A stretch of DNA of 64,000 nucleotides from Anaerolineales bacterium (GTDB lineage Bacteria; Chloroflexota; Anaerolineae; Anaerolineales; RBG-16-64-43), in NCBI GenBank assembly GCA_035288225.1, contig DATEAT010000007.1, positions 4,828 through 68,827 on the forward strand, read 5' to 3'. Below are positions 26,237-59,261 of this stretch, piece by piece. Position 1 is the first letter of the stretch. Each line of letters opens with the position of its first letter. The translations under genes and the position numbers were made by a program. A model generated the notes under the pieces. That model was not told the origin of the DNA, ran no database searches, and was given only the letters and a program-made list of their open reading frames with translations.

Positions 26237-26379
26237 CCTCCTTGCGCCCTGCGGCCAGGGACATTCGGGGCGGCCCGCCTGGCGGCCGCCGCGGCCAGTG
26301 TCCGCGCGTTGGCGCAGCGCGGGCCACTGCCTGCCGAAGGCATTCGAACTACAGGCTCCATCATACGGGAGGGGGGCCG

Positions 26380-29121: not shown

Positions 29122-29278
29122 GTATTCATGCGGGTCGTAGCCTGCGTCCTTTCAATCGAAAGAGGATAGCCCGCAGGCGCATGCCACTCTACATCGAGTC
29201 GGCAACGTACGCCGGCCTGGCTCGCCATGGCCAGTAGGCGCTCATGATGCGTTTGGGGCGGACTGGCAAGGGGGGTGA

Positions 29279-31393
29279 ATGAACCTCATCCGGCGCCGCC
29301 TGCTGATGTGCAGCCTCCTCGCGGCGGGCTTCTTGCTTCCGCCGGCGCTGCCGTCCCCTGCCGCCGACAAGCGCGAGATGCGCTCTGACCTGATATGGGA
29401 GTGGGCGACGGGATCGATCAAGACCAGGTTGCCGGAACGCTCGATCGAAGTCACCGATCTGGATGGGGATGGCGCCACCGACATGGTTGTGTGCCAGCAG
29501 GGTTACGTCACCAATTTGAACTTTGTCCCTCCCGCGGCCTATGCACCTGCCTGGTTCAGTGTTTACATGCGATGCACCGCGATCGCTACCGGCGACCGGA
29601 ATGGGGACGGCGCACGGGAGATCTACGCCCTGGTAGACCCCGGACGTGTCGTCATCCTGGATGCGAGCGGCCGCGCCGAACTGGGCGCATTCGACCTGCC
29701 CGCCGGCGTCGTCTCATATGATCTCGCCGTTGCCGATGTCGACGGTGACACCCATTCGGAGATCGTGGTCTCCCTCCGCGATCGCACGCTCGTCTATGAC
29801 GCGGCAACCTTTGCGCTGGAGTGGAGCGCGATCGGCCACGGTGCCGGTTCTGCCCACAACGGCGGAGTCCTTATCGCCAACATCGATGGCGATGCTTTGC
29901 TGGAAATTGTTGTCAACGGCGATGCCGGCCACATTCTGAACGCCGCTCTCCAGACGGAGGAATTCGGCATTGCCGGCGGATTGGGAAAGGACTTCGATCT
30001 GAGCGACGTCGACTCCGACGGCATGGCGGAAATCGTGTATGGCGAGAGTACCCAACTATACATCCTGGACGCTGATACGCTTTCGGTCAAGTGGCAACGC
30101 GGCGATCTGCCGATGGCGTACAGTGTGGTCGCCGTCGACCTGGACGGCAACGGCGAAACCGAAATCGTGCATGGAGATGGGAATGTGGTCCGTGGTCTCA
30201 ACGGGGCTAACGGCGCAACCCTGTGGACCTGGGACACTCCGCGCAACGAAACCGAGGGCCTTGTTGCCGGGGACCTCGACAGTGATGGCCTGGTGGAGTT
30301 GGGATGGGCGGCTCCCAGTGTCGGCGCCCTGTACATCGGGGACTGGCAATCGCAGACCGTCGACTGGGAGAGTTGGGACTATACGGGCACCTTCCTGGCA
30401 GAGACAGGTGATGTTGATGCCGATGGGGAAGGCGAGATTCTCGTCGCCCCGCGGTCGGGGGACTTGCTGGCTTACGCCGGGTCGTCGCACGATTTGCTCT
30501 GGTCGAAGGTGGACGACCCGGGGCTTTACCACACCTCCTTTCTCGAGCTGGGCCAGGTGGATGACGACTCCGCCCTAGAGATCCTTACCGCCAACTATTC
30601 GACATTGAGCGCGTTCGATGGGGCTACGGGGATGCGCGAGTGGGCGTATCACGTCTTCTCCTCGTCCGACCCCGCAGGGCTCGCTGTCGCCAATCTGGAT
30701 TCCGATCCGCAAGACGAGATCGTCATCGGCACCACGGCTGGCCACGTGCTTGTTCTGGACTCGGATGGAAGCACGGTATTGTGGGACAGCGGCGCCCAGC
30801 CTGGTTCGATCATTGATTTCTCCCTGGGCGACCTGAATGGTGACGGGGTCCTGGACCTGGCCGTCCTGACCGCTCAGGTCCTACGAGTGTTCACGACGGA
30901 CACATGGGAGCTGACCCAGGATGTTCCCTTCACGGATGGCGTTGCCATTGCCGTCGCCAACGGTGACGGGCGCAATGCGGGCGAACTGATCACCGCACGC
31001 TACGCCGGCTCCTACCTGCACACCCTCCAGGCCTGGAATGGCATCGACCTTCAACCCATCTGGCAGGAGTCACTATCCGTTGGCAGCGTTGAAGAGATCG
31101 ATGTCGCGGACCTGGATTCGGACGGCGTGCAGGAATTTCTCGTCATGGGCGTCTTTCGATACGACGTGATCGCGCATCCGAGCAGCTACCTGCGCATCGG
31201 CGCGCTGTATCACGACCCGGTGTGGGAGTATCAACTTCCCGACAATTGGGAGACGGTGTACGGAAGTGCGGCCTTCGACCTCGATAACGACTCGCGTCTG
31301 GAGCTTGTCCTGGGCGCCCATGCCACAGTCCAGGTGTATGAGGTCACGGGCTGGCCGGTGTATTACCTGTTTACTCCATTCGTGACACGCTGA
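29279..31393 (+). CDS. Secreted FG-GAP/VCBS-type repeat protein (14 blades), paralog lacking the C-terminal domain
   Basis: Signal peptide. 14 DxDxDG-type loops in the same blade order as the upstream gene (for example blade 4 ANIDGD and blade 10 ANLDSDP). Confidence 0.7.
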   Translation: MNLIRRRLLMCSLLAAGFLLPPALPSPAADKREMRSDLIWEWATGSIKTRLPERSIEVTDLDGDGATDMVVCQQGYVTNLNFVPPAAYAPAWFSVYMRCTAIATGDRNGDGAREIYALVDPGRVVILDASGRAELGAFDLPAGVVSYDLAVADVDGDTHSEIVVSLRDRTLVYDAATFALEWSAIGHGAGSAHNGGVLIANIDGDALLEIVVNGDAGHILNAALQTEEFGIAGGLGKDFDLSDVDSDGMAEIVYGESTQLYILDADTLSVKWQRGDLPMAYSVVAVDLDGNGETEIVHGDGNVVRGLNGANGATLWTWDTPRNETEGLVAGDLDSDGLVELGWAAPSVGALYIGDWQSQTVDWESWDYTGTFLAETGDVDADGEGEILVAPRSGDLLAYAGSSHDLLWSKVDDPGLYHTSFLELGQVDDDSALEILTANYSTLSAFDGATGMREWAYHVFSSSDPAGLAVANLDSDPQDEIVIGTTAGHVLVLDSDGSTVLWDSGAQPGSIIDFSLGDLNGDGVLDLAVLTAQVLRVFTTDTWELTQDVPFTDGVAIAVANGDGRNAGELITARYAGSYLHTLQAWNGIDLQPIWQESLSVGSVEEIDVADLDSDGVQEFLVMGVFRYDVIAHPSSYLRIGALYHDPVWEYQLPDNWETVYGSAAFDLDNDSRLELVLGAHATVQVYEVTGWPVYYLFTPFVTR

Positions 31394-31545: not shown

Positions 31546-33156
31546 ATGACATATGCCTGGTGGCAGGAAGGCGTCATCTACCAGATCTACCCACGCTCGT
31601 TCGCCGACGACGACGGCGACGGCGTGGGCGACCTGCGCGGGATCATCGCCCATTTGGATCACCTCAACGACGGCACCCCCAACTCCCTGGGCGTGGACGC
31701 GATCTGGCTCTCGCCGGTCTATCCCTCGCCGGGCTACGACTTCGGCTACGACGTGGCCGACTACTGTGACATCGCCCCGCTCTTCGGCACGCTCGCCGAC
31801 TTCAACCGCCTGATCGCCGAGGCCCACCGCCGCGGTATGCGCGTTCTCATGGACATGGTGGTCAATCACACCTCGCACCAGCATCCGTGGTTCGTTGAAT
31901 CGCGCGCCGCGCGCGAGAATCCCAAGCGGGATTGGTACATCTGGCGCGATGCACGCGCCGGCGGCGGCAGACCCAACAAGTGGGAATCGGTTTTCGGGGG
32001 ACGCGCCTGGGAGTGGGATGAGGCGACCCAGCAGTACTACTACCACATGTTCCTCAAGGAACAGCCGGATCTCAACTGGCGTAATCCCGACGTGCGCCGT
32101 GCGGTGATGCAGGTCTTCCGCTTCTGGCTGGAGCGTGGGGTGGATGGCTTCCGCCTGGACGTGGTCAACGCTTATTTCAAGGACGCCGACCTGCGCGACA
32201 ACCCGTCCAAGCTCGGCATCCGCGGCTACGATCGCCAGGCGCATGTCTATGATATGGACCGCCCCGAGCTGATTGGGGTCTACCGCGAGCTGAACACGCT
32301 GCTCGCCGAGTACGGCGAGCGCATGGCGGTGGGCGAGATCATGGAGGCCACGCACGCGAAGGTCGCGCGCTACAGCGGGCCGGGGCGGCTGCCGCTCGCA
32401 TTCAACTTCGAGTTCACGCGCCAGCCGTGGCAGGCGCGAGCGTTTGCGCGAGCGGTTGCCCGCTGCGAGGCCTCCCTGGGCGAAGCGGGCTGGCCCTGCT
32501 ACGTGCTCTCCAACCACGATGTGCCGCGCCACGCCTCGCGCTACGGCGGGCGCTTCGCGGTCGAGCGGGCCAAGGTGGCGGCGGCGATGCTGCTCACGCT
32601 GCGCGGTACACCCTTCCTTTATTACGGCGAGGAGATCGGCATGCGCGACGGCCGCATCCCGCGCGCGCAGATCCAGGACCCGCCGGGGAAGCACTACTGG
32701 CCTCTGTACGGCGGTCGCGACCCCGAGCGCACGCCGATGCCGTGGAGCGCGGAAGAAGGCGCCGGCTTCAGCCGCGGCCGGCCGTGGCTGCCGATCAACC
32801 GGGACTATCGCGAGGTGAACGTTGCGGCGCAGCGCGATGATCCGCACTCGGTGTTCTCGTTCTACCGACAGCTGATCTGGCTGCGCAAGGCGAGCGTGGC
32901 GCTGCGCCAGGGGAGTTACCGCCCGCTCATTCAAGCGCCGCGGCACGCGCAGGCTTACCTGCGCGATGCGCCAGGCCAGCGGATGCTGGTGGCGCTCAAC
33001 TTCTCCGCCCAACCGCTGGTGGCCCCGTTCAACGAGCCGCTGCCGCGTGCGGCCTGGCGCCTGCGCCTCAGCACGCACGCCGCGGCGCATGAGCCCATGC
33101 AGGGCGGTAGCATACATCTGCGGCCATACGAGGCGTGCATCTTCGAGGCCGAGTAA
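31546..33156 (+). CDS. GH13 alpha-glucosidase / oligo-1,6-glucosidase-like
   Basis: WWQEGVIYQIYPRSF.DDDGDGVGDLRGI, GVDAIWLSPVY, DMVVNHTS, GFRLDVVN, GEIME and SNHD conserved regions. Confidence 0.85.
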   Translation: MTYAWWQEGVIYQIYPRSFADDDGDGVGDLRGIIAHLDHLNDGTPNSLGVDAIWLSPVYPSPGYDFGYDVADYCDIAPLFGTLADFNRLIAEAHRRGMRVLMDMVVNHTSHQHPWFVESRAARENPKRDWYIWRDARAGGGRPNKWESVFGGRAWEWDEATQQYYYHMFLKEQPDLNWRNPDVRRAVMQVFRFWLERGVDGFRLDVVNAYFKDADLRDNPSKLGIRGYDRQAHVYDMDRPELIGVYRELNTLLAEYGERMAVGEIMEATHAKVARYSGPGRLPLAFNFEFTRQPWQARAFARAVARCEASLGEAGWPCYVLSNHDVPRHASRYGGRFAVERAKVAAAMLLTLRGTPFLYYGEEIGMRDGRIPRAQIQDPPGKHYWPLYGGRDPERTPMPWSAEEGAGFSRGRPWLPINRDYREVNVAAQRDDPHSVFSFYRQLIWLRKASVALRQGSYRPLIQAPRHAQAYLRDAPGQRMLVALNFSAQPLVAPFNEPLPRAAWRLRLSTHAAAHEPMQGGSIHLRPYEACIFEAE

Positions 33157-33181
33157 CCCGCGACGCTGCGTGCATGAATAG

Positions 33182-33216
33182 AAGCGCCGGCCCACCATAT
33201 GGTGGGCCGGCGCTTT
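33182..33216. terminator. Bidirectional terminator hairpin (13-bp perfect stem GCGCCGGCCCACC / GGTGGGCCGGCGC, loop ATAT, flanked by AA / TTT)
   Basis: Read directly. Lies between convergent genes. Confidence 0.65.
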
Positions 33217-33237
33217 GCCTGCGGGCCGCAGTGCGCG

Positions 33238-33477
33238 CTAGAACAGCCCGCGAAGCAAGAGCAAGAAGCCGACAATGATTAGCGGGATCCCGATGATCGC
33301 GCCCACCACGGTGATCGTGAGCACCACGCCCACCACCATCAGCACGAAGCCGAGAATCACCGCCACCAGCCGCCCGGTGAATCCTAGGATCCACGTGAGC
33401 AACTGCCAGATGGCCCAGAACGGCCACAGATACCACGCCACACGCTTGCTGCTCGTCATCCTTGCCTCCTTACCCAT
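33238..33477 (-). CDS. Small two-TM membrane protein, unknown function
   Basis: ORF track 79 aa, strongly hydrophobic. Downstream of the PspC-domain gene on the same strand. Confidence 0.45.
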   Translation of the reverse strand: MGKEARMTSSKRVAWYLWPFWAIWQLLTWILGFTGRLVAVILGFVLMVVGVVLTITVVGAIIGIPLIIVGFLLLLRGLF

Positions 33478-33504
33478 CGCCTCACACGGATCCGGCGCTG
33501 TGGG

Positions 33505-33702
33505 TCACGCGCCAGGAATGATGATCCAGCACAAGAGGTACATGGCCAAACCGGGCACGCCGCCTGGGATGCAGGCCACGAGGAACCCCAAGCGGAACCA
33601 GGTTGGGCTGATTCCGAAGAATTCACCCAGGCCGCCGCACACGCCTGCCAGCACCCGGCTGGAGGGTGAACGACGCAGCGGCGCGCGGGTTGTCTCATTC
33701 AT
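33505..33702 (-). CDS. PspC-domain protein
   Basis: LRRSPSSRVLAGVCGGLGEFFGISPTWFRLGFLV plus a TM helix. Start set at the internal ATG 33702 (MNETT..). Confidence 0.7.
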   Translation of the reverse strand: MNETTRAPLRRSPSSRVLAGVCGGLGEFFGISPTWFRLGFLVACIPGGVPGLAMYLLCWIIIPGA

Positions 33703-33893
33703 TCTAGCCTCCGTCGATACATGTTCGTTCAAACTGGATATACGCACGTCCGCGGTGGCAGTTGCCGGTTTCGTTGCGGGTTTGGCTGGGGTCCGGCCGG
33801 GATGGGGAGGCTACGGCCGCTTGACACGCCAATAATGGCTGTAGACGCCTCCCAGGGGTGGCTGGAGGGCTTTGATGTGCCCAAGACTGGGGC

Positions 33894-33911
33894 TTGCGTA
33901 ATCTTTCACAA
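33894..33911. promoter_or_regulatory. Rex-like operator TTGCGTAATCTTTCACAA
   Basis: 12 of 14 specified positions match TTGTGAA-N4-TTCACAA, and the right half is perfect. It ends 3 nt upstream of the TG of the putative extended -10 element (33915-33923). Confidence 0.4.
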
Positions 33912-33914
33912 CTA

Positions 33915-33923
33915 TGCTATAGT
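33915..33923 (+). promoter_or_regulatory. Extended -10 promoter element TGCTATAGT (with TTGCGT 18 nt upstream)
   Basis: Only sigma-70-like signal I see in the 600-nt gap upstream of hdrA. It implies a leader of about 375 nt. Confidence 0.35.
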
Positions 33924-34306
33924 CTTCACTATCGGGAGAGGAACCTGACAATTTCGCACCACGGCGCTCGCTCCTGACTCTCTCGGAACTTACGTGGTTG
34001 TCATTGAGCCTTTTGGGGAGGGCTCACCGCCGCAGTTCCCAGTTGCGATGGACGGGGTTTCATGGCCCGAATTGGCGTGAACCCATGCCGCCGAACGCGC
34101 GGGCATCCGGGTGGCTCCCAGCCACCCCAGGTCAACTGTTGCCTGCCTCTGAATCCTCCCGTCTCCATCCGATTTCCAGCGAACGCCTCCCACGCGTCTG
34201 GCTCGGCCATCCCCTTTGAGCGTGTTGGCCCGCCGGCGCGCCATTCGATCCCGCCCGCTGCCCGTGGCGGGCCTTCGCCAACACCGCGCACAAGGAGGAG
34301 CACCGC

Positions 34307-36343
34307 ATGAGTGCCAACCGTAGCGCAGGCATCTCGCCGGGCGAGTACTCGGCCGCGCCTCCAGGCGAGAAGATCGGCGTGTACATCTGCCACTGCGGCA
34401 CCAACATCGCCGCCATGGTGGATGTTGCCGAGGTGGCCGAGTACGCCGGGGCGCTGCAGGGAGTGGCCGTCGCGCGCCACTACACCTACATGTGCTCCGA
34501 CCCGGGCCAAGCGATGATCCAGGAGGATATTCGCTCGCTCGGCTTGGACCGGGTGGTGGTGGCCTCCTGCTCGCCGCTCATGCACGAGCCCACCTTCCGT
34601 GCGGCGTGCGCCCAGGCCGGTCTCAACCCGTTTCTCTTCCAGATGACAAACATCCGCGAGCACGTCTCGTGGGTGAGCGACGACCGCAGCAGCGCAACGC
34701 AGAAGGCGCTGGCGTTGGTGACGGCAGCCGTGCGCCGGGTGTCATTGCAGCAGCCGCTCGAGACCCGCCAACTGGGAGTCACCCAGTCGGCGCTGGTGGT
34801 GGGCGGCGGTATTGCCGGCATCGAGGCCGCGCTACGCCTGGCCGATGCCGGCAAGCGAGTGTATCTGGTAGAGCGTGAGCCGTCGATCGGCGGGCACATG
34901 GCCCAACTCTACAAGACCTTTCCCACTCTCGACTGTGCGGCCTGAATTCTCACCCCCAAGATGGTGTCCGTGGGACGCCATGAGAACATCACACTCCTCA
35001 GCTACAGCGAGGTGGAAGCTGTATCCGGTTTCGTGGGGTCCTTCCAGGTGCGCGTGCGCCGCAAGGCGCGCCATGTGAAAGAAGATTTGTGCACCGGCTG
35101 CGGCACCTGCGTGCAGAAGTGTCCCTGGCGCAAGATCCCCTCCGAGTTCGACCTGGGCCTGGGCACCCGCCCGGCGATCTACTTCCCCTTCGGCCAGGCC
35201 GTGCCGCGCGTGCCGGTCATCGACACCGAGCACTGTGCCTACTTCGCCAAGGGCACCTGCCGCGCCTGCGCCAAATTTTGCCCGCGTGAAGCCATCGACT
35301 TCGAACAGACCGACCAGCAGCTCGAGCTCGAGGTCGGCACGATCATCCTGGCCACCGGCTTCCAGAACTACGACCCGCGCCGCGACTCGCGCTTCGGGTA
35401 CGGGGAACTGCCGGACGTGGTCACCGGGCCGGAGTTCGAACGGCTGGTGAATTCGGGCGGGCCCACATTGGGGCAGGTGCTGCGCGCCGACGGCACCCCA
35501 CCCAAGAAGGTGGCCCTCATCCATTGTGTGGGCAGCCGCGGCGAGGCACACGAATACTGCTCGCGCGTGTGCTGCATGTATTCGCTCAAGCTGGCGCACC
35601 TCGTCCACGATGCGACCGGGGCCGAGGTGACCGAGTTCTACCGCGACATGCGCACCTTCGGCAAGGACTACGAATCGTTCTACCGCCGAGTGGTTGCGGA
35701 GGGCATCCATACCTTCCGCTATGAGGGTGATGTGCAGGTGACCCAGGCCGATGGCCACTTGCGGGTGACCGCCACCGATGTGTTCACGGGAAAGCCGGCC
35801 GAGATCGAAAGTGACATGGTGATCCTGGCCACCGGCCTGGAGCCGCAGGCCGATCAACGGCAGGTGGCCCGCCGTTTCGGAGTGAGCCTCAGCCCGGACG
35901 GTTTCTTCATGGAGCGCCACCCCAAACTGGCGCCGGTGGAAACGGCCAGCGACGGCATCTTCCTGGCCGGCACCTGCCAGGGGCCCAAGGATATCCCCGA
36001 CAGCGTTGCCCAGGGGGGCGCCGCGGCGGCGGCCGCGCTCTCGCTGATGGATGCGGGCTACGTCTATCTCGAGCCCTTCACGGTGCACGTGCTGTCCGAG
36101 CGCTGCAGCGGCTGCCGCACCTGTCAGAACCTGTGCCCCTTCAGCGCGATCCAGATGACCGAGCACGACGGACGAACGGTCTCCACGATCAACGAAGTGC
36201 TGTGCAAGGGCTGCGGCACGTGCGCCGCCGCCTGCCCGGCCGGCGCCATATACCAGAACAACTTCTCCAACGATCAGGTCATCGCCGAAATCCTCGGGGC
36301 GCTGTCGATCGACCGCGCCGTTCCTCAGGAGGCCTTCCCATGA
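34307..36343 (+). CDS. hdrA: HdrA-like flavoprotein (heterodisulfide reductase subunit A family), selenocysteine-containing (TGA 34943-34945 read as Sec)
   Basis: ORFs 34307..34945 and 34961..36343 are in the same frame, separated only by TGA. Joined sequence: ..YKTFPTLDCAA-U-ILTPKMVSVGR... Other HdrA hallmarks: VYICHCGTNIA, GGGIAGIEAAL, CTGCGTC, CVGSRGEAHEYCSRVCCMYSLK, FLAGTCQGPKDIP, and a C-terminal 2x[4Fe-4S] ferredoxin. ATG follows AAGGAGGAG. Confidence 0.8.
34961..34981 (+). other. Putative bacterial SECIS-like hairpin (AUGGUGUCC gug GGACGCCAU)
   Basis: 9-bp stem including one G-U pair, starting 15 nt after the UGA. An equivalent hairpin follows the second UGA. Confidence 0.4.
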
Positions 36344-39300
36344 ACCGCTCCTCCCCCCGGACGGGCGTCTACGTCTGCCAGTGTGGGACCAATATTGCCG
36401 CGACGGTGGAGGTGCAGCAGGTAGCCGAGTTCGCGCGCGACCTGCCGGGCGTGGTGGCCGCCCGCAGTTACAGCTATATGTGCTCCGAGCCCGGCCAGGC
36501 GCTGATCAAGCAAGACATCCAGGACCACGGCCTCAACCGCGTGGTGGTGGCCTCCTGTTCGCCGCTCATGCACGAGCCCACATTCCGGCGCGCATGTGCC
36601 GAGGCCGGCCTCAACCCCTTCTGCATGCAGATGGCCAACATCCGCGAGCACTGTGCCTGGGTCATCGACGACCGTCAGCAGGCCACCGCCAAGGCCAAGC
36701 ATCTGGTGGCGGCCGCGGTCCGCCGGGTGGCTCAGCACCGCCCGCTGGAGATGCGCCAGGTGCATGTGGAGCCAGCCGCGCTGGTGGTGGGCGCGGGCAT
36801 CGCCGGCATCGAGGCGGCGCTGCGCCTGGCGGAGGCGGGCAAGCAGGTCTATCTGGTGGAGCGCGAGCCGTCGATCGGCGGCCACATGGCCCAGCTCTAC
36901 AAGACCTTTCCCACCCTCGACTGTGCGGCTTGAATACTCACACCCAAAATGGTGTCCGTTGGACGCCAAAAGAACATCAAGCTGCTGAGCTACAGCGAAA
37001 TCGAATCGGTTTCAGGCTATGTGGGCAACTTCGAGGTGCGCGTGCGGCGCAAGCCGCGCTACATCGATGAGAGCAAGTGCACCGGCTGCGGCAATTGCGC
37101 CACCGTCTGCCCGATCGAGGTGACCAACGTCTTCGACCTGGGGCTGAGCACGCGCCGCGCGGTGTACCGCCACTCGCCGCAAGCCGTGCCCGGCGCGTTT
37201 ACGATTGAGAAGCGCGGCATCGCCCCGTGCCGCAATGCCTGCCCAACCGACCAGCGCGCCCAGGGTTACATCGCCCTGGTTCGCCAGCGGCGTTTCGCCG
37301 ATGCCTACTGGGCCATCCGCCGCGAGCATCCCTTCCCCTCGGTGTGCGGGCGCGTGTGCAACCATCGCTGCGAAGATGCATGCAGCCGGGGCAGTTACGA
37401 TCAGCCGGTCAATATCATGGCCCTCAAGCGATTCGTCGCAGATTGGGCCTTCGACCATCGCGACCAGCTCCCGGCCCAGCGCGCCAAGTCGCTCACCGGC
37501 ACGCCCTTTGCCGTGCACCCGACGGCCAGCGGCAAGAAAATTGCGATCATCGGCGCCGGGCCGGCCGGGCTGACCACCGCCCTCGACCTGGTGCGCCTCG
37601 GCCACCAAACCACGGTATTCGATTCACTGCCGGTGGCCGGCGGGATGATGCGCGTGGGCATCCCGCCCCATCGCATGCCGCTGGAACTCATCGAATGGGA
37701 GATTCAGCAGATTCTGGACGAGGGCGTGCAATTGCGCCTGAACACGTGGGTTGACGACATCCCGGCGCTGCTCGACCAGGGCTACCATGCGGTGCTCATC
37801 GCCACCGGTGCCCACCAGGCCAAGAAGATTCCCATCCGCAACTCGAACCATCCCGACAACTGGCTCAGCCTGAACCTGTTGCGGCGTGTGGCGCAGGGCG
37901 AGGCGATCGACCTGCGCGAGCGCAGCGTGATCGTGATGGGCGGCGGCAACGTGGCCCTCGACACGGCGCGCACGGTAGTGCGCCTGGGCGCGCGCCAAGT
38001 GAGCATCGTGTGCCTCGAACCGCGCGGCGAGATGCCGGGCTTCGCCTGGGAAGTGGGGGTGGCCGAGCAGGAGGGCATCCACGTGCTGCCCGGGCGGACC
38101 TTTAAGGAAGTGGTGGTCAAGGGCAGCCGCATCAGCGGGCTGCGCTGCACCGAGGTTGTCTTCCGTGGCTTCAAGCGCGGGCGGCCCGATATCAGCGAGA
38201 TTCCCGGCACCGAGCACGTTGTGCCCGGCGATCTGGTGATCTGGGCCATCGGCCAGGGGCCGGATTTCTCCTTCCTGCCCGGCGACGGCAGCATCAACAC
38301 GTGTTATCCGGTGGGTATCCAGACCAACAGCGAGATGATGACCACCACCCCGGGCGTGTTCTGCGCGGGTGATGTGCGCCGCGGGCAGACCTTCTTTGTG
38401 GTCGACGCCATCGGCGAGGGCCACCACGCCGCGCGCTGCATCGACCGTTACCTGCGCGGCGAGCAGGGTGTGCAAGAAACGCATCGGCCGCCGGTGGTGG
38501 AATTGCGCCGCGAGGAGATCGAGCACAAATTGGAGCTGGGGGAAGCCGCGCGCCATCCGCGCGCGGTGATCCGCAACATCGGCGTGGAAGCGCGCCGGCT
38601 CAACTTCCGCGAAGTGGATCTCACGCTGACCGAAGCCGAGGCTGTGGCCGAGGCCGAGCGCTGCCTGCGCTGCGGAGTATGTTCCGAGTGCTTGGAGTGC
38701 GTCTCGGCATGCGAGCGAGGGGCGATCAACCACGACATGCAGGCCGAGATCTTGGATCTCAAGGTGGGGACGCTGGTGCTGGCCACCGGCTTCCGCGATT
38801 TCGACCCGCGAGTTGCCCCTGAGCTGGGTTACGGGCGCCTGCCAAATGTGCTGAGCGCTATGGAGTTTGAGCGGCTGATCAACACCGGCGGCCCGACGCT
38901 GGGCAAGGTGCTGCTCGCCAACGGTCAGCCGCCCAAGCGGGTGGCCATCGTGCACTGTGTGGGCAGCCGCGACGACCGCTACCACGAGTATTGCTCGCGC
39001 GCCTGTTGCATGTACTCACTCAAGATCGCCCAACTGGCACACGAGTACCTGCAGGCGGAGGTGTTCGAGATCTACCGCGACATGCGCTCCTTCGGCAAAG
39101 GCTACGAGGAGTTCTACAACCGCACGCGCGCGAGCGGCGTTAACTTCTTCCACGGCCGGGTGCGCGAGGTGACGGCGGTTGATGGACACCTGCGCGTGCA
39201 GTGGGAAGAGAGTTTCCACAACGAGCCCGACCAGGTGGACGTGGACCTCGTGATTCTCGCCACGGGCATGGAACCGCAAGGCGATACGGCACGCATGGCG

Positions 39301-39762
39301 AAGCTTTTCGGTCTCTCGCGCAGCCGGGATGGGTTCTTCCTCGAGCGCCATCCCAAGCTCGCCCCAGTGGAGACCTCCTCGCAGGGCATCTTCCTTGCCG
39401 GAGCGTGCCAGAGTCCCAAAGACATCCCCGACACGGTGGCGCAGGCCTCTGCCGCTGCAGCCGGCGCGCTGGCCCTCATCGACCAGCACACCATCAGCCT
39501 GGATCCCTCCATTGCCGAGGTGGAGGCGGCACGCTGCCTAGGCTGCGGCCAGTGTGCAGCCGCCTGCCCGTATGGGGCCATCGAACTGGCGCGCGGCAAG
39601 GCCGCGGTCAACGCCTACTTGTGCAAAGGCTGCGGCACGTGCGCCGGGGCGTGCCCGAACAAGGCCATGAGCCTCATCCATTTCGACGACCGCGAGTTGA
39701 TTGCCGAACTGGACGGTGCCCTGGCGTGGATCGATGCCGCCGAAGAGGTGGGCCATGTATGA
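36340..39762 (+). CDS. Chimeric HdrA-like flavoprotein with inserted GltD/NfnB-like NAD(P)H-binding module, selenocysteine-containing (TGA 36931-36933 read as Sec)
   Basis: ATG 36340 overlaps the hdrA stop (ATGA). ORFs ..36933 and 36949.. share a frame across TGA, in the identical TLDCAA-U-ILTPKMVSVGR context. The middle about 430 aa has CRNACP..VCGRVCNHRCEDAC, GKKIAIIGAGPAGL, VIVMGGGNVALD and GVFCAGD. The flanks are collinear with HdrA. Confidence 0.75.
36950..36968 (+). other. Putative SECIS-like hairpin (UGGUGUCC guu GGACGCCA)
   Basis: 8-bp stem starting 16 nt after the UGA at 36931. Confidence 0.4.
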
Positions 39763-40243
39763 ACCCAAGGTGATCGGATTCCTGTGTACCTGGTGCAGCT
39801 ACACCGGCGCCGACTCGGCCGGCACCTCGCGCCTGAAAACCCCGTGGAACCTGCGCGCCGTGCGCGTGCCGTGCTCCGGGCGCGTGGCGCCGGAGCTCAT
39901 CCTGCGCGCCTTCGACCAAGGGGCCGACGGCGTTCTGGTGCTCGGCTGCCACATCGGCGAATGCCACTACGACAGCGGCAACCATCGCGCCGCTAAGCGC
40001 ATCCCGCTGCTGCTCTCCATCCTGGAGTTTGCCGGGATGCAGCCCGAGCGGCTGCGTTTGGATTGGGTGTCGGCCTCGGAGGGCGATCGCTACGCGCGGA
40101 TCGTGAGCGAGTTTGTCGACGCGCTGCGCCCACTTGGGCCCGACACCTGGCGTATCAGCGGCGCCGCCCCGAGGGCCGACGCGGCGATCGGCGTGCCGCT
40201 GGCGGCGTCGTCGGAGCTGAGCGGAGGCGCACCATGTCCATAA
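39755..40243 (+). CDS. mvhD: MvhD/FlpD-like protein (methyl-viologen-reducing hydrogenase delta subunit family)
   Basis: GFLCTWCSYTGADSAG..VPCSGRV..GADGVLVLGCHIGECHY. The start overlaps the upstream stop by 8 nt. Confidence 0.8.
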   Translation: MYEPKVIGFLCTWCSYTGADSAGTSRLKTPWNLRAVRVPCSGRVAPELILRAFDQGADGVLVLGCHIGECHYDSGNHRAAKRIPLLLSILEFAGMQPERLRLDWVSASEGDRYARIVSEFVDALRPLGPDTWRISGAAPRADAAIGVPLAASSELSGGAPCP

Positions 40244-41127
40244 GCGAAGCCATGCAATCCGCGGCGCGCGATGTGCTGGCCTCCGGCCAAGTACAACGGG
40301 TCATCGGCTACGAGGTAGGCCCGCACGGCCGCGTTCGCCCGGCGATCATCGACCGGCCGGAGGAGGCCGGGCGCCTGGTGTGGAGCGCGGACTGCACACA
40401 TAACCTGACTGTCTACCTGCAGCGCGCCTTGAACGGCGAGAACGGCCGCGCCTCGCACGAGGCCGCGACCCCGCCGACGCGCGTCGCCATCGTCGTCAAG
40501 CCGTGCGACAGCCGCGCGATCAATGTGCTGCTCGCCGAGCACCAGTTCTCACGCGAGCAGGTTTTCGCCATCGGCATGGCCTGCGAGGGGATACGCCAGG
40601 GCGCGCCGGCCAGTGTGCCGGAGGCGACGCTGCAGGCACGCTGCCTGCGCTGCCGCGAGCGGGTGCCGGTAGTCCAGGATGTGCTGCTCGGCGAGCCGCC
40701 GAGCGCGCTGCCGGAGGCGCTGCCGGACGAGGCGCTGGCGCACGTGCGCGGCATGCCGCCGGCCGAGCGGGCCGCCTTCTGGCTCAGCCAGTTCGATCGG
40801 TGCATTCGCTGCTACGCCTGTCGCCAGGCCTGTCCGATGTGCAATTGCCCGACCTGTCTCTTCGAACAAGAGGATGCACTGTGGGTGGGCATGCGCATCG
40901 CGCCCTCCGAGAAGCGCACCTTCCACTTGGGGCGCGCGCTGCACCTCGCCGGGCGCTGCGTCGGCTGTAACGAGTGCGAACGAGTGTGCCCGATGGGCAT
41001 TCCGATCGGGCTGCTCAACCGCCATCTGGCGGAGACCGTCGAGAGCCTGTACGGTCATCGGGCCGGGATGCAGCCGGTGCTCTCACCGGTGACGGGCATG
41101 CTCAGCGCGGAGGAGAGTGCCCCATGA
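40234..41127 (+). CDS. Iron-sulfur protein, 4Fe-4S dicluster type (FlxC / HydB / AsrA-related)
   Basis: VKPCDSRAINVL, CIRCYACRQACPMCNC and CVGCNECERVCPMGIP. Overlaps mvhD by 10 nt. Confidence 0.6.
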   Translation: MSISEAMQSAARDVLASGQVQRVIGYEVGPHGRVRPAIIDRPEEAGRLVWSADCTHNLTVYLQRALNGENGRASHEAATPPTRVAIVVKPCDSRAINVLLAEHQFSREQVFAIGMACEGIRQGAPASVPEATLQARCLRCRERVPVVQDVLLGEPPSALPEALPDEALAHVRGMPPAERAAFWLSQFDRCIRCYACRQACPMCNCPTCLFEQEDALWVGMRIAPSEKRTFHLGRALHLAGRCVGCNECERVCPMGIPIGLLNRHLAETVESLYGHRAGMQPVLSPVTGMLSAEESAP

Positions 41128-42122
41128 AGACTCTCTCGCGAGAGAATCTCAACCTCTGGCTGGATGGGCTGGCGGCGCAGCAGGTGCTCATCGCCCCGCA
41201 CCTCGAGGCGCAAGGCGTGTTCTATCGCCCGGTGCAGCGGGCCCAGGAGATTGCCTGGGAGGCAGGCCGCCCGGTGCTCTCGGCCAAGGAATTCCTGTTT
41301 CCCCCCAGCGAACGCCTGCTCAAGGTGGAGAAGCGCGGGCCGGACATCCGTCTCGAGGCCAGCCCTTCCGCCGCGCCACAAGTGATCTTTGGCCTACGCC
41401 CGTGCGATGCGCGCGGCATCCGCGTGTTGGACGCGGCCTTCGTCGATACACCGCCGATTGACCCCCAGTATGCGAGCCGCCGTGAGAACACGCTGCTCGT
41501 GGGGCTGGCCTGTCGCAGCATGGGCGCCTCCTGCTTCTGTACCGCCGTGGGCCTGGCACCGGATGACCCGCGCGACATGGACGTGATGTTCAGCGATCGC
41601 GGGGCGACGCTGGCCGTGCAGGCCCTGACCCCGCGCGGCGAGGCGCTCATCGCCAACCTGGCGCTGGTCGAGGAGCCAGGGGAAGTGGCGCCCGCCTCGC
41701 GACGAGAGGTGAGCGGCCTGCCAACGGCCGAGGCTTGGAAAGAGAGTTACAGCGACGCGCGATGGGCCAAGCACGGCGAGCGCTGCCTGAGCTGCCGCCT
41801 GTGCGCTTACGTCTGCCCCACCTGCCGCTGTTACGACGTACGCGATGAGGCGCTGCCCTCCCCGCCGGGCGAGGCACACTTCGAGCGGTTGCGCACATGG
41901 GATAGCTGCACGCGGGAAGGCTACCGGCGCACGGCCGGCGGGCACAACCCGCGCGCGGCTTCGGGCAGCCGCCTGCGCAACCGGCTGCTGTGCAAGTTCG
42001 TCTACTACCCGCATCAGTATGGCCCTGCCGCCTGCACCGGTTGCGGTCGCTGCCTCGACGCATGCCCGGTGAACCTCGACCTGCTCGAGATTGGCGGCGC
42101 GCTTCAGGAGGCTGCCCAATGA
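41124..42122 (+). CDS. Iron-sulfur protein, anaerobic sulfite reductase subunit A / sulfhydrogenase beta (HydB) / FlxB-like
   Basis: LRPCDARGIRVLD, CFCTAVG, CLSCRLCAYVCPTCRCYD and CTGCGRCLDACPVNL. ATGA overlap with the upstream gene. Confidence 0.65.
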   Translation: MKTLSRENLNLWLDGLAAQQVLIAPHLEAQGVFYRPVQRAQEIAWEAGRPVLSAKEFLFPPSERLLKVEKRGPDIRLEASPSAAPQVIFGLRPCDARGIRVLDAAFVDTPPIDPQYASRRENTLLVGLACRSMGASCFCTAVGLAPDDPRDMDVMFSDRGATLAVQALTPRGEALIANLALVEEPGEVAPASRREVSGLPTAEAWKESYSDARWAKHGERCLSCRLCAYVCPTCRCYDVRDEALPSPPGEAHFERLRTWDSCTREGYRRTAGGHNPRAASGSRLRNRLLCKFVYYPHQYGPAACTGCGRCLDACPVNLDLLEIGGALQEAAQ

Positions 42123-42964
42123 GCACAGCCGACGGCACCGATCCGATGTATCCACTCCTGGGGCGATTGGTTTCCAGCCGCGACATGGGGCGCGAGATCA
42201 AACTGCTCGGGGTGAAGCTGCTCAATGGAACACAGCCCCGCTTTCCAGCCTATGCGCCGGGTCAGTTCGCCTTCCTTTCGGCGTTCGGAATCGGCGAGGC
42301 GCCCTTCGGGCTGGCCTCCACCACCGAACGAGGCGAAGTGCTTGAGTTCGCCGTGCAGCGCCTGGGCTCCGTGACGACCGGCCTGCACGAGCTGGCCGAG
42401 GGCGATGCGCTGGGGGTGCGCGGCCCCCTGGGCAACACCTTCCCGATGGAGGCCTTCCAGCACAAGAACTTGCTCGTGCTCGGCGGCGGCATCGGCGGCG
42501 CGCCGTTGCGCCCGCTGATTCACAGCGTACTCGACCACCGCCAGGATTATGGTCAATTGACCATTCTGTGGGCAGCCCGCCACCCCTCGCTGCTCATATT
42601 CCGCGACGAATACGAAAGTTGGCGCGCCGCGCCGCACACCGAGCTGCACCTGACCGTGGATGAGGCGGATGCCGCGTGGGATCATCACGTGGGCCTGATG
42701 ACCGATCTTGTGCGGCAGGTGGCGCCCTCAGCCGCCAACACCATCGCCATCACCTGCGGGCCGCCGATTATGATCTATCACGTCGACAAGCTGCTCAGCG
42801 AACTGGGCTTCGCGCCCGAGCAGCGCTACGTCACGCTCGAGGCGCGCATGCACTGCGGCCTGGGCAAGTGCGGACGATGTAATATGGGCGAGCTCTTGGT
42901 GTGCCGCGACGGGCCGGTCTTTTCTATGGCCCAGGTCGGCAACTTCTTGGAGAGTTACCTGTAG
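42119..42964 (+). CDS. FAD/NAD(P)-binding oxidoreductase with C-terminal [2Fe-2S] (AsrB / HydG / PyrK / NfnA / FlxA-like)
   Basis: PGQFAFLS, LLVLGGGIGGAPLRPL and the C-terminal CGLGKCGRCNMG...VCRDGPVF. ATGA overlap with the upstream gene. Confidence 0.7.
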   Translation: MSTADGTDPMYPLLGRLVSSRDMGREIKLLGVKLLNGTQPRFPAYAPGQFAFLSAFGIGEAPFGLASTTERGEVLEFAVQRLGSVTTGLHELAEGDALGVRGPLGNTFPMEAFQHKNLLVLGGGIGGAPLRPLIHSVLDHRQDYGQLTILWAARHPSLLIFRDEYESWRAAPHTELHLTVDEADAAWDHHVGLMTDLVRQVAPSAANTIAITCGPPIMIYHVDKLLSELGFAPEQRYVTLEARMHCGLGKCGRCNMGELLVCRDGPVFSMAQVGNFLESYL

Positions 42965-43000
42965 AGGGAAACCGCCACGCGCGGGAGAGGGCGGGGCACA

Positions 43001-43030
43001 TATGCGGGTCGCCATCTGGCGACCCGCATA
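43001..43030. terminator. 13-bp perfect hairpin between convergent operons (TATGCGGGTCGCC atct GGCGACCCGCATA)
   Basis: Read directly. It lies 37 nt after the stop at 42964 and 30 nt from the kinase stop at 43060. Confidence 0.6.
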
Positions 43031-43059
43031 CGATTCGTGCTGCACAGGGGCCGTCCGGG

Positions 43060-44946
43060 TCAGGCAGCCCGCGCGGGTTCCGGGGCTGCAGTCTCCAGGG
43101 GAAGCACAACAGTGAAAGTGGTGCCGCGTCCTTCCTCGCTTTGCACGCTGATCAACCCCCCAAAGGAATCCACCAGACGCTTGACGATGCTCAGGCCCAG
43201 GCCGGTGCCCACGATCCCGGAGTGGCGCGCATTGGAGGCGCGGAAGAATTCTTCCCACAGGCGCGGCATCTCGTCCCGCGGAATGCCCATGCCGGTATCG
43301 GCGATCACCACCTCGGCCGAGGTGGCGCGCAGACCGACGCGCACCTCCACCTGCCCGTCGGCCGGGGTGTATTTGACCGCGTTGCCAATCAGATTCTCAA
43401 GGACGCCCGCCAACCCGTCGTGTGTCGCGCGCACGTCCACCTTCCCCGGCGGCAAGCGCACGCGCAGCCCCACCCGTTTGACCTTGGCGGCCGCTGCGTG
43501 CTGCTCGACCGCCCACTGCACCACCGCCTTGAGCTCCACCGCCTCGGTGCGCTCCTCAAAGCCCATCGTCTTGGTGGCGGCCAGGGCCAGCAGGTCGCCG
43601 ATGAGTGCCATCAACCGGTCGAGGCGGCCGAGCACGCGAGCGACGATATCCTTCTGTTTGTCGCTCATCTCGCCCGACATCCCACCCAGCATGACCCGCA
43701 GCAGGCTTTGCGCGCCGCCCACCGGCGAGCGCAATTCGTGGGTCACCGTGCGCACGAACTCCGCGCGGGCCTGGTCGGCACGCTGCAGCGCCTCGTGCGC
43801 CTGGGCGTTTTCGATGGCCACCGCTCCCTCGCGTGCGATGGCCGTGACATAGTCAGCGTCGGCCGGAGTGAAGCGCCGCGGCTGATCGGCGTACACGCGC
43901 AGCACCCCCAGCGGGCGCGTGCGGCCCATGATCGGGACCACCAGGATACTGAGAATACCCTCCTGAATGACCTCGTCGGGATACTGCAAGCGGTCGTCGG
44001 CCAGCACATCATTGACGATGACCGGAGTCCCCGAGAGCACCTCGCGATCCATGGGACTGCGCGAAAGATCCACCGGCCCTTTGCGCTGGTATTCCGCACG
44101 CAGCCCATAGGAGGCCGCCAGGATGAGCCTCTCGCCCGTTTCATCCAGCAGGCGGATGGAGGCGCGCTCCGTGGAGAGCACGTGTGCGGCGTTGCGCGCC
44201 AGGCGTTCGAGCACCTGCGGCAAGCTGAGCGTCGACGAAACGGCTTGCGTCGCCTGCAGCAAGCCCACCACTTGTCGTTCGCGTTCGCGCAGGCGGTCCA
44301 TAATCGAGGCACTCAGCACGACGGTCCCCGCGGCCGCGATCCCGAAGAACCCGATTTGGGCCAGGATGAAGAGCGGCTGCCGGTAGAGGTCGGGTGGCAG
44401 GAAGGGCAGCGCCGGCAGGTTGGGCAGCACTCCGGTGGCTTCGGCGAGGGCCAGCACGATGAGCGCGCCCAGACCGATGCTCACGGTGAGCAATGGGTGC
44501 GTTCCGGGGAACAGGATGGCCCCGATCAGCATGTGGATGAGGAAGAAAGGAATTGCCGGGCTGGTCAGGCCGCCGGTCAGATGCAGGAAGATGGCCATTG
44601 CCATCCAGTCGAGCGCCACCTGGAGAAGTACCAAGCGCCGGATGCCCCGCGAATACAGCGCCGCATCGTCCGAGAAGATCCGCCCGGTGAGCCACAAGAG
44701 AACCAGATTGTAGAAGAGAATCGTGAGACCGAGCGCGACAAGCGGCGTTTCGGGGATCGGCAGACCCAGCAGTCGAACGCAAGCCAGCGCCCCGATGAGC
44801 ACGCCGGTGCCGGCCAGCCAGCGGATCTGAATCAGACGCGCACTGGTGCTGGCCACATCGCCCGGCAGCAGCCCATCGTGCCGGCTGGCGGGGATGTCGT
44901 TCTCGGGCGGGACCGCGGACAAGTCCACCTCAGGTGGTTCGGTCAC
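43060..44946 (-). CDS. Sensor histidine kinase (polytopic N-terminus, GAF, HisKA, HATPase_c); no cognate regulator adjacent
   Basis: TVTHELRSP (H-box), NLIGNAVKYT (N-box), DTGMGIP and GTGLGLSIV. GTG start. Confidence 0.8.
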   Translation of the reverse strand: MTEPPEVDLSAVPPENDIPASRHDGLLPGDVASTSARLIQIRWLAGTGVLIGALACVRLLGLPIPETPLVALGLTILFYNLVLLWLTGRIFSDDAALYSRGIRRLVLLQVALDWMAMAIFLHLTGGLTSPAIPFFLIHMLIGAILFPGTHPLLTVSIGLGALIVLALAEATGVLPNLPALPFLPPDLYRQPLFILAQIGFFGIAAAGTVVLSASIMDRLRERERQVVGLLQATQAVSSTLSLPQVLERLARNAAHVLSTERASIRLLDETGERLILAASYGLRAEYQRKGPVDLSRSPMDREVLSGTPVIVNDVLADDRLQYPDEVIQEGILSILVVPIMGRTRPLGVLRVYADQPRRFTPADADYVTAIAREGAVAIENAQAHEALQRADQARAEFVRTVTHELRSPVGGAQSLLRVMLGGMSGEMSDKQKDIVARVLGRLDRLMALIGDLLALAATKTMGFEERTEAVELKAVVQWAVEQHAAAAKVKRVGLRVRLPPGKVDVRATHDGLAGVLENLIGNAVKYTPADGQVEVRVGLRATSAEVVIADTGMGIPRDEMPRLWEEFFRASNARHSGIVGTGLGLSIVKRLVDSFGGLISVQSEEGRGTTFTVVLPLETAAPEPARAA

Positions 44947-59215: not shown

Positions 59216-59261
59216 CCTCGCCTCCCTTGACCCGTCGATCGCCCTCCACGCGGCGATCGTC

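Follow-up and report, generated by a model that had tools for sequence, protein, structure and literature searches.

An HdrL-type selenoprotein with a StnC-like module inserted in its HdrA scaffold, encoded in a six-gene operon of an Anaerolineales bacterium

Introduction

Can a single polypeptide of an Anaerolineales bacterium hold two bifurcating flavins of different descent? The question is raised by hdrL (type III HdrA), a gene of 1140 codons at 36340-39762 on the plus strand of a 64,000-nucleotide stretch of DNA (contig DATEAT010000007.1 of assembly GCA_035288225.1, positions 4,828 to 68,827 of the forward strand), hereafter called the window. A preliminary description of the window had read its product, HdrL, as an HdrA scaffold with an internal GltD/NfnB-like module for reduced nicotinamide adenine dinucleotide (phosphate) (NAD(P)H). 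It had assigned to HdrL two flavin adenine dinucleotide (FAD) cofactors of two bifurcating lineages and had likened the last gene of the operon to NfnA, so that a complete Nfn-like unit might be grafted onto Hdr. The overall reading that we favour, with fairly good confidence, is that of an HdrL-type HdrA selenoprotein whose insert would be a non-bifurcating, StnC-like NAD(P)H port, with bifurcation taking place at the HdrA-type FAD.

The design of an HdrA with a GltD/NfnB insert is already published three times, as HdrL, as HdrA-NfnB fusion and as type III HdrA. HdrL was described in Desulfobacterium as a selenocysteine (Sec)-containing fusion of HdrA and glutamate synthase, followed by mvhD (Strittmatter 2009, PMC2702500). 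For the anaerobic methanotrophic archaea ANME-1, passages of Chadwick 2022 (PMC9012536) present the HdrA-NfnB fusions HdrA9, HdrA10 and HdrA11, with possibly two bifurcation sites and NADPH as carrier. In passages of a 2025 study (PMC12054007), type III HdrA is proposed to use NADH via a repurposed ferredoxin arm. New here are the circular permutation of the insert, its Lys-type, StnC-like character, the breadth of the family, a conserved operon without HdrBC and the universal use of Sec and of a Sec insertion sequence (SECIS).

Gene and domain layout of HdrL

The region 36340-39762 is one frame of 1140 codons that includes a Sec codon, as had been stated; it contains a single in-frame TGA, and AGGAGG stands 8 nt upstream of the ATG. 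Base composition was even across the hdrL region (about 66% G+C) and did not shift at the domain junctions. Every motif previously listed was found in HdrL. Those shared with the upstream HdrA, and found there as well, were VYVCQCGTNIA/VYICHCGTNIA, CTGCGxC, CVGSR..EYCSRxCCMYSLK, FLAGxCQxPKDIP and the two terminal copies of CxxCxxCxxxCP, and those of the intervening part were PCRNACP..VCGRVCNHRCEDAC, GKKIAIIGAGPAGL, VIVMGGGNVALD and GVFCAGD.

Pfam, NCBIfam and PDB searches agreed on an HdrA scaffold with an internal NAD(P)H module of the GltD/NfnB family. The NCBIfam model HdrA2 matched two separate stretches of HdrL, residues 7-304 and about 773-1129 (787 bits). Likewise, residues 3-291 of the HdrA structure 5odc_A aligned to HdrL 5-292 (380.6 bits) and its residues 293-649 to HdrL 781-1127 (319 bits), and the two-stretch alignments to 5odc_A, 8rvu_a and 9sfi_A reached 625 to 699 bits. 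Between the two stretches, the NCBIfam model PRK12771 'NAD(P)-binding protein' matched HdrL 291-802 (475 bits). Pfam placed Fer4_20, the FeS domain of GltD and dihydropyrimidine dehydrogenase (DPD), on HdrL 295-373 (74.6 bits) and Pyr_redox_2 on HdrL 400-694 (150.5 bits, model positions 2-291 of 291), the latter flanked by HdrA-type FAD and ferredoxin matches. Parsing by hidden Markov models, which the preliminary description had proposed as a check, thus supports the GltD-like assignment through Fer4_20, Pyr_redox_2 and PRK12771. A genuine glutamate synthase small subunit was considered as well and rejected, as GltB is not encoded nearby and the score fell below every GltD model cut-off. HdrL also scored below the curated equivalog cut-offs of NF040770 (787 against 1100 bits) and NF041778 (582 against 1400 bits), and is best classed as an HdrA-family protein that is not an equivalog of the subunit of the coenzyme B-coenzyme M (CoB-CoM) enzyme.

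The first HdrA part (aa 1-292, 36340-37215, +) comprised the N-terminal iron-sulfur (FeS) domain, the FAD-binding GxGxxG, the pair C195-x-x-U198 and the first Cys motif of the inserted ferredoxin domain (C247, C250, C253, C257). The second part (aa 781-1140, 38680-39762, +) began with the second Cys motif of that domain (C781, C784, C787, C791) and continued with the remainder of the FAD domain, including the CxGSRD..CSxxCC cluster, and then the C-terminal 2x[4Fe-4S] ferredoxin domain. HdrL therefore has the full domain and ligand set of HdrA, and the HdrA ligand Cys were invariant in an alignment of 13 diverse fusions from distant taxa. The insertion point lies between C257 and C781, that is between the two ferredoxin Cys motifs, where the flanks meet residues 291 and 293 of 5odc_A.

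The insert was identified as residues 293-780 (37216-38679, +; PRK12771 and PDB matches) because the HdrA and NfnB alignments and the domain searches place it there. It consists of an FeS sub-domain (aa 295-373, 37222-37458, +) with C297, C301, C340, C344, C348 and Lys363, of an FAD Rossmann fold (GKKIAIIGAGPAGL) and an NAD(P)H Rossmann fold (VIVMGGGNVALD, then IVCLE) that together span aa 395-709 (37522-38466, +), and of a displaced N-terminal segment of NfnB (aa 745-780, 38572-38679, +; ...NFREVDLTLTEAEAVAEAERC775LRC778G). The limits proposed earlier held for the HdrA start (about residues 1-290). The insert, put at about 430 aa, is about 488 aa long, and the junctions lie near 37216 and 38680 instead of 37150 and 38600. 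Residues 720-780, which had been counted as collinear with HdrA, rather correspond to the displaced N-terminal segment of the NfnB fold. Judged from these alignments, HdrL is a complete HdrA in which the inserted ferredoxin domain is split by a GltD/NfnB-like module for FAD, NAD(P)H and two [4Fe-4S] clusters. In the M. wolfeii HdrA structure, as summarised in a passage of PMC9012536, it is through this arm that low-potential electrons reach ferredoxin.

Nature of the insert

The insert matched the bifurcating enzyme NfnB, with HdrL 296-709 aligned to residues 46-463 of 4ylf_B (E 8.5e-56) and a similar match to 5jca_L (E 1.5e-54). Its best relatives in the PDB were 9bov_A, 9n5u_A and StnC (8oh5_C) over HdrL 286-788, and the three StnC-type scores (282, 244 and 222 bits) stood against 192 bits for NfnB. 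The order of the insert was not collinear with NfnB, since the 'NFxEV..RCLxC' segment follows the nucleotide-binding folds instead of being N-terminal. Residues 751-778 of HdrL (NFREVDLTLTEAEAVAEAERCLRC) matched residues 12-43 of T. maritima NfnB (4ylf_B, E 5e-4) and, more weakly, the N-terminal stretches of P. furiosus NfnI and DPD; the displaced segment also matched 9bov_A 528-568 (E 4e-7). The homology of HdrL 751-778 to the N-terminal residues 12-43 of NfnB indicates that the insert is a circular permutant of NfnB/GltD, and by its order and scores it is assigned to the circularly permuted, StnC-like branch.

Seven Cys of the insert were invariant among the 13 fusions, namely C297, C301, C340, C344 and C348, together with C775 and C778. 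The last two supply the first two ligands from the C-terminal end of the insert, and they directly precede the second HdrA ferredoxin motif, so that one run CxxCxxCxxCxxCxxxC results. The seven Cys of the insert match in number those which, with a Glu, are presumably used by NfnB for its two [4Fe-4S] clusters.

Lys363 of HdrL (NIMALKRFVADW) aligned with Lys170 of StnC and with the Lys of 9bov_A and 9n5u_A. At the equivalent position Glu is found in 5jca_L and 5vj7_A (NIGKLERFVADY). Among the diverse fusions the residue was Lys in 11 of 13 and His in the other two, and Glu was found in none (0/13). The insert also has the short GRVCxxxC spacing of StnC, and its conserved Arg445 is the counterpart of Arg201 in NfnB and Arg239 in StnC. 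In NfnB one ligand of the proximal [4Fe-4S] cluster is Glu, in StnC it is Lys170 or Cys114, and the FAD of StnC was shown experimentally not to bifurcate (PMC10482914). Most likely, then, the insert would be a plain port from NAD(P)H to FeS clusters and not a site of further bifurcation, in line with what has been proposed for archaeal type III HdrA (PMC12054007).

After the second Rossmann motif, IVCLE (aa 558-562, 38011-38025) stands in place of the NADPH-type IVYRR, and within the Anaerolineae clade both L559 and E560 show at least 90% conservation. By the classical rule of an acidic residue at beta2, this replacement points to NADH, which the insert of this clade probably uses. Among the distant members, a few have ICLET or ACIED at the 2'-phosphate site and most keep YRR. 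The two patterns, IVCLE and YRR, may be the sign of a change from NADPH to NADH within the HdrL family.

Selenocysteine codon and SECIS hairpin

The in-frame UGA of hdrL (36931-36933, +; ...KTFPTLDCAA*ILTPKMV...) corresponds to Sec198 and aligned with Cys197 of methanogen HdrA and with the Sec (X) of 9sfi_A. The upstream gene hdrA1 (34307-36343, +) encodes an HdrA selenoprotein of 678 aa with Sec213 in the same motif (TGA at 34943-34945), and its stop codon overlaps the hdrL start (ATGA). In the related loci, TGA was found at this position in all 66 of the 66 HdrA-type and HdrL-type genes read, and the position aligned with an invariant Cys (TGC or TGT) in all Cys-type homologues.

An 8-bp hairpin, UGGUGUCC-GUN-GGACGCCA, begins 19 nt past the U of UGA in both genes. 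In hdrL it is the SECIS hairpin UGGUGUCC-GUU-GGACGCCA at 36950-36968 (+), identified by comparison, and in hdrA1 the SECIS-like hairpin at 34962-34980 (+) has an 8-bp stem and a GUG loop. Over about 60 loci the stem was invariant at synonymous sites and the loop and flanking codons varied; locus L014 carried a compensatory variant. The divergent HdrA of loci L020-L027 had a hairpin of another sequence (GGAUGUC-GGUC-GACAUCC) in a similar place, a few nt further downstream, and in the Cys-type locus L038 (TGC, TGT) the hairpin was destroyed. Folding energies gave Z-scores of -1.5 to -1.9, weak when taken alone, and the SECIS claim therefore rests on the comparative evidence. A search of the whole window at the Rfam gathering threshold gave no match; the presence of a bacterial SECIS family in that library was not ascertained.

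The window also contains selA, for L-seryl-tRNA(Sec) selenium transferase, at 53944-55323 (+), 11 kb downstream of the operon (Pfam SelA, 441 bits, and Se-cys_synth_N). ARAGORN found no tRNA gene in the window, tRNA-Sec included, and selB, selC and selD were not seen there (selB and selD among the window genes scanned). With the aligned Cys/Sec197, the hairpin and selA, Sec insertion at the UGA, as had been proposed, is established at the level of sequence. For M. maripaludis HdrA, Sec197 was modelled (PMC13518236). Residue 197 is described in a passage of PMC9012536 as a ligand donated to the N-terminal cluster of the partner protomer; alternatively, it is one half of a Cys-Sec redox pair between the FAD and that cluster (PMC13518236), a pair that in HdrL would be C195 and U198.

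Public gene calls are split at the UGA, with hdrA giving 212 + 460 aa and hdrL 197 + 937 aa (in locus L040, 7359-9395 and 9392-12814). Gene callers resume behind the TGA, which explains why most database entries of HdrL have about 937 aa, and the family is annotated simply as 'FAD-dependent oxidoreductase' or as truncated 'HdrA' because they stop at the Sec codon. As Sec and SECIS usage is universal in hdrA and hdrL, this mis-annotation is systematic, and both genes of the Anaerolineae lineage are mis-called as two open reading frames (ORFs) each.

Distribution of the family

The exact post-TGA product of 937 aa was found on three separate ENA assemblies, one of them a 76.7-kb contig with the same neighbours as in the window. 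There were more than 120 clusters with an identity of at least 70%, most of them of about 937 aa, and the gene is carried by some 30 species of Anaerolineae. Two homologues from Anaerolineales, P0002 and P0003, were full-length, of the Cys type and collinear through both junctions. An assembly chimera, named in the preliminary description as one outcome that would overturn its reading, was not borne out by these assemblies and homologues.

A query spanning both junctions (HdrL aa 245-895) was searched against 1.84 billion representative proteins and gave 3212 matches at E <1e-30. It was covered end to end by 49 of the best 150 clusters at 50% identity, and named members came from Dehalogenimonas sp. 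WBC-2, Syntrophaceae, Heimdall/Asgard archaea and marine Pseudomonadales. Both junctions were conserved from 98% down to about 35% identity, across Chloroflexota, Syntrophaceae, Asgard archaea and Pseudomonadales. HdrL or type III HdrA is thus widespread in these groups. In a scan of species-representative genomes, the gene was found in 36 metagenome-assembled genomes (MAGs) of Chloroflexota. That scan used very specific peptide patterns and reached Anaerolineae only, and the wider spread comes from the representative-protein search. The nearest carriers were 'Chloroflexi bacterium RBG_16_64_43' and an Anaerolineae MAG, at 97-98% identity.

A second type of locus was seen in Anaerolineales (L020, L021, L024-L027 and L032), with two adjoining, shorter HdrL-like genes. 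These match only HdrL residues 143-815 or so, i.e. the N-lobe of the FAD domain, ferredoxin motif 1 and the GltD module, and they have no N-terminal domain, Sec codon or C-terminal half. Downstream of them stand mvhD, a Sec-type hdrA (hairpin as given above for L020-L027) and a second mvhD.

The operon and its products

The stop of hdrL is overlapped by 8 nt by a gene for an MvhD or FlxD-like protein (162 aa, 39755-40243, +), which matched the full Pfam model FlpD with 161.9 bits. The next gene encodes a FlxC-like FeS protein (297 aa, 40234-41127, +) with matches to Fer4 families, whose C-terminal 100 aa matched the FdhB FeS region of Fdh-Hdr complexes (8rvu_E 273-374, 86.7 bits). The FlxB-like product that follows (332 aa, 41124-42122, +) is an FeS protein related to HydB and AsrA (Pfam Fer4_22, 102.7 bits; NCBIfam ShyB, HydB and AsrA) and scored 151 bits against the sulfhydrogenase beta subunit 9nez_B.

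The last gene (281 aa, 42119-42964, +) encodes a FlxA-like protein of the HydG/AsrB/PyrK family for FAD, NAD(P)H and a [2Fe-2S] cluster (NAD_binding_1, DHODB_Fe-S_bind). It scored 189 bits with PRK08345 and 165 bits with AsrB, against 77 bits with the NfnA-type NCBIfam model PRK06222, whose cut-off is 220. Among structures it scored 157 bits against the gamma subunit of P. furiosus sulfhydrogenase I (9nez_C), 74 against PyrK and 54 against NfnA (4ylf_A), and its [2Fe-2S] motif is all-Cys (CGLGKCGRC...C). Because the cognate HydB/AsrA-like partner is encoded immediately upstream, we read the last two genes as FlxA and FlxB rather than NfnA. The likeness to NfnA that had been proposed for the last gene therefore holds at the level of the superfamily and fails as an identity, and with a HydG/AsrB/FlxA-like protein that has its own HydB-like partner, a complete Nfn-like unit on Hdr finds no support.

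Start and stop codons overlap by 4 to 10 nt between all six genes, hdrA1-hdrL-mvhD-flxC-flxB-flxA. This order is kept in about 25 Anaerolineae species (HdrL identity 67-98%), with no hdrB or hdrC inserted among the genes, and hdrA1 precedes hdrL in all complete related loci. Proteins with CCG domains (HdrB/HdrC) were found neither among the window genes scanned nor in the 10-kb flanks of L038 and L040.

Identity of HdrA1 to the two HdrA halves of HdrL is 70% and 54%. Over the N-terminal 235 residues of HdrL it is 73% and over the C-terminal part of the FAD domain 58%, and the SECIS regions are nearly identical. By these values (73%, 58%) the halves of HdrL are closer to HdrA1 than to distant HdrLs. 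The uneven identity may reflect gene conversion between tandem paralogues, or else unequal constraint.

Tandem hdrL copies were seen in five loci (L005, L008, L014, L019 and L034) with the order hdrA-hdrL-hdrL-mvhD-flxCBA. Identity of the second copy to the HdrL of the window is about 68%, and both copies have the TGA and the hairpin. In the Cys-type locus L038 (GCA_019873735.1, 13402-14760), MvhD and the FlxC-like FeS protein are fused in one protein of 452 aa, which argues for contact between MvhD and FlxC.

Proposed working of the complex

The insert would begin and end inside its own FeS sub-domain, with C775 and C778 running into ferredoxin motif 2. From this ending and the continuous Cys run we infer that the clusters of the insert may lie in series with those of the ferredoxin arm and then with the HdrA FAD. 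The insert would so form a non-bifurcating pyridine-nucleotide port on the arm that normally reduces free ferredoxin, and the bifurcating or confurcating site would stay the HdrA-type FAD.

The core of the complex may be an asymmetric heterodimer of HdrA1 and HdrL. It is suggested by the nature of HdrA as an obligate dimer with Cys/Sec197 exchanged between the protomers (PMC9012536, in the passage on HdrA), by the two genes being always adjacent and translationally coupled, and by HdrA1 being nearest to the HdrL halves. In such a core HdrA1 would keep the free ferredoxin arm and HdrL would offer NAD(P)H in cis. FlxA-FlxB-FlxC-MvhD would connect a second NAD(P)H site with the C-terminal ferredoxin domain, giving electrons to it or taking them from it in the manner of methanogen MvhD (for a summary of the electron paths in HdrA, see PMC9012536). 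The permuted, Lys-type insert leads to the testable idea of a non-bifurcating NAD(P)H port on the ferredoxin arm of one protomer in an asymmetric HdrA dimer.

As the complex would have two sites for pyridine nucleotides and one for ferredoxin, and no subunit that reduces disulfides is linked to it, ferredoxin-dependent transhydrogenation as in Nfn and Stn would be the simplest chemistry that balances. By this analogy, net chemistry of the ferredoxin-dependent NADH/NADPH transhydrogenase type is favoured; the alternative is a thiol/disulfide acceptor handled by HdrBC-type proteins encoded elsewhere. A more far-reaching proposal is that HdrA1-HdrL-MvhD-FlxCBA, without HdrBC, constitutes a third, independent type of such transhydrogenase after NfnAB and StnABC. 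Here the HdrA-type flavin would bifurcate, the permuted GltD insert (in cis) and FlxA via MvhD (in trans) would be the medium- and high-potential ports, and the ferredoxin arm of HdrA1 would be the low-potential exit. We regard this proposal as speculative and doubtful. If the complex without HdrBC is a transhydrogenase, it would be a new solution for balancing NADH, NADPH and ferredoxin in abundant fermentative Chloroflexi.

Other explanations of the locus were weighed against the overall reading. That hdrL is an artefact, namely an assembly chimera, a pseudogene or a gene truly stopped at the TGA with separate products of 197 and 937 aa, deserves practically no credence. The split public gene calls for hdrA and hdrL and the database entries of about 937 aa agree with it, but the identical sequence recurs on three assemblies, both junctions are conserved across distant taxa, the TGA aligns with an invariant Cys, the SECIS hairpin co-varies with the TGA, selA is present, and the 197-aa fragment alone would be without most of the FAD domain. 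Chimera, true stop and pseudogene were rejected on these grounds. A complete Nfn unit on Hdr, with HdrA-FAD and an NfnB-type bifurcating FAD as two bifurcating flavins and NfnA as the last gene, was judged quite improbable. The idea is already in print (Chadwick et al., PMC9012536, in the passages on these fusions), the insert gives E 1e-54 to 1e-56 against the bifurcating NfnB of both T. maritima and P. furiosus, the Arg that hydrogen-bonds the FAD N5 in NfnB is kept as Arg445, and NfnA and the last gene are both members of the PyrK superfamily. It is made less likely by Lys363 in place of Glu and by an insert that is closer to the StnC type, whose FAD does not bifurcate, and that shares with StnC the permutation, the GRVCxxxC spacing and the Lys at the proximal cluster. 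The last gene, moreover, lies under the NfnA model cut-off and resembles HydG/AsrB (157 bits, with 54 bits for NfnA); its [2Fe-2S] motif is all-Cys, and it is paired with its own HydB-like subunit. A bifurcating role for the second FAD, as implied earlier for HdrL, is disfavoured on the same grounds of Lys363 and the permuted, StnC-like insert.

A classical Flx-Hdr enzyme is also conceivable, in which NAD(P)H oxidation is bifurcated to ferredoxin and a disulfide (DsrC-like or heterodisulfide), HdrBC is encoded elsewhere in the genome and the insert is only an extra or alternative entry for NAD(P)H. The FAD-domain cluster C873, C885, C889 and C890, which normally feeds HdrC, was strictly conserved in the 13 fusions, Flx proteins elsewhere work with HdrABC (PMC4287179, PMC5947623), and in S. 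fumaroxidans HdrL is encoded beside hdrABC. Against such an enzyme stand the lack of CCG-domain genes among the window genes scanned and within 10 kb of the operon in L038 and L040, and the six-gene set kept without hdrB and hdrC among its genes in about 25 species. It is further disfavoured in that we know of no DsrC or coenzyme M/coenzyme B metabolism in Anaerolineae. On the whole this explanation seems possible but unlikely.

Several points weigh against the reading of an HdrL-type selenoprotein with a non-bifurcating, StnC-like port. Its functional statements on HdrL derive from sequence, and we know of no HdrL that has been purified. The heterodimer and the cluster wiring are likewise read from sequence, and the AlphaFold model of the Cys-type homologue P0002, built on a shallow alignment of 32 sequences, was poor (mean pLDDT 55.9, pTM 0.43). 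HdrBC could be encoded elsewhere in the genome, and the conserved cluster that normally feeds HdrC hints at a partner on that branch. Arg445 is no guide to bifurcation, because the Arg is conserved in StnC too. The criterion of Lys against Glu was derived from structural work on a single family, Stn, and may not hold for HdrL, and the choice of NADH over NADPH follows from the Rossmann beta2 rule only.

Comparison with known systems

The HdrLs of D. autotrophicum HRM2 and S. fumaroxidans (Sfum_0824) (Strittmatter 2009, PMC2702500; Sedano-Nunez 2018, PMC5947623) are likewise large soluble fusions of HdrA with the glutamate synthase small subunit. HdrL1 and HdrL3 of D. autotrophicum also contain Sec, and mvhD follows in both cases, as it does here at 39755-40243. 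As with the HdrL of the window, these named HdrLs can sit in tandem with a plain hdrA and are proposed to oxidise NADH. They occur in sulfate reducers, whereas the present HdrL belongs to Anaerolineae (Chloroflexota), and its gene is linked to flxCBA-like genes instead of dsr, hdrBC or fdh genes. Some deltaproteobacterial members of HdrL have about 1500 aa with extra domains. Kinship to HdrL1-3 and to HdrA9-11 of ANME-1 is suggested by the shared architecture and by the junction-spanning clusters from Syntrophaceae and archaea.

For the ANME-1 proteins and type III HdrA, passages of the 2022 and 2025 work propose NAD(P)H as the carrier, and the predicted structures presented there put the insert at the ferredoxin-reducing arm. 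In the corresponding part of the type III survey these proteins are archaeal and rare (nine sequences), whereas the family found here is broad in Bacteria. The passages of PMC9012536 and PMC12054007 on these proteins make no mention of the circular permutation or of the Lys/Glu difference.

The GltD-like domain of StnC (8oh5), 9bov_A and 9n5u_A have the same order of FeS domain, FAD/NADPH folds and 'NFxEV..EAxRCLxCG' as the insert, and the same proximal Lys. In StnC the domain admits electrons from NADPH to a separate bifurcating module and does not itself bifurcate; it is fused to NuoG/FdhF-like domains and feeds an FMN (flavin mononucleotide) of the HydBC type, whereas the insert of HdrL lies in HdrA and would feed the HdrA-type FAD. 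Neither NuoG/FdhF-like domains nor a partnership of the StnAB type (HydBC-like) were found in the HdrL protein or its operon. With NfnB (4ylf_B, 5jca_L) the insert has in common the fold, the FAD and NAD(P)H sites and the Arg near the FAD N5; it differs in being permuted, in having Lys for the Glu ligand and IVCLE for IVYRR, and in having no NfnA-type partner.

FlxABCD (Flox; Ramos 2015, cited via PMC5947623 and PMC4287179), which serves Flx-Hdr complexes as their NAD(P)H dehydrogenase module, is the same set of four proteins beside hdrA, i.e. an MvhD-like protein, two FeS proteins and a protein for FAD, NAD(P)H and [2Fe-2S]. Unlike FlxABCD of Flx-Hdr, the flx genes of the window have the order D-C-B-A downstream of hdrA-hdrL and are without hdrBC. 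Their membership in Flx is set by domain architecture and similarity to HydB and HydG, not by the Flx sequences of D. vulgaris.

Neighbouring genes in the window

The flanks of the operon are unrelated to it, with FG-GAP proteins and an alpha-amylase upstream and a GAF histidine kinase and a VIT/vWA protein downstream. The two large paralogous FG-GAP/beta-propeller repeat proteins (962 and 704 aa, 26233-31393, +) have signal-peptide-like N termini and are encoded directly before the alpha-amylase family gene. The 1.15 kb upstream of the operon (33157-34306) has no confident plus-strand gene. An ORF of 186 aa in it (33275-33835) had no Pfam match and an atypical pattern of G+C by codon position, and in the matching stretch of L040 two small minus-strand genes are called, one of them PspC-like. 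Scans for promoter consensus upstream (33100-34400) and for terminators downstream (42800-43200) gave nothing above shuffled expectation.

Further downstream, at 58508-62765 (-), cytochrome c maturation genes (CcmC-like, CcmB) are accompanied by a gene for a protein of 698 aa with two c-type cytochrome domains. The presence of genes for cytochrome c maturation and for a c-type cytochrome indicates that the host organism is probably no strict fermenter.

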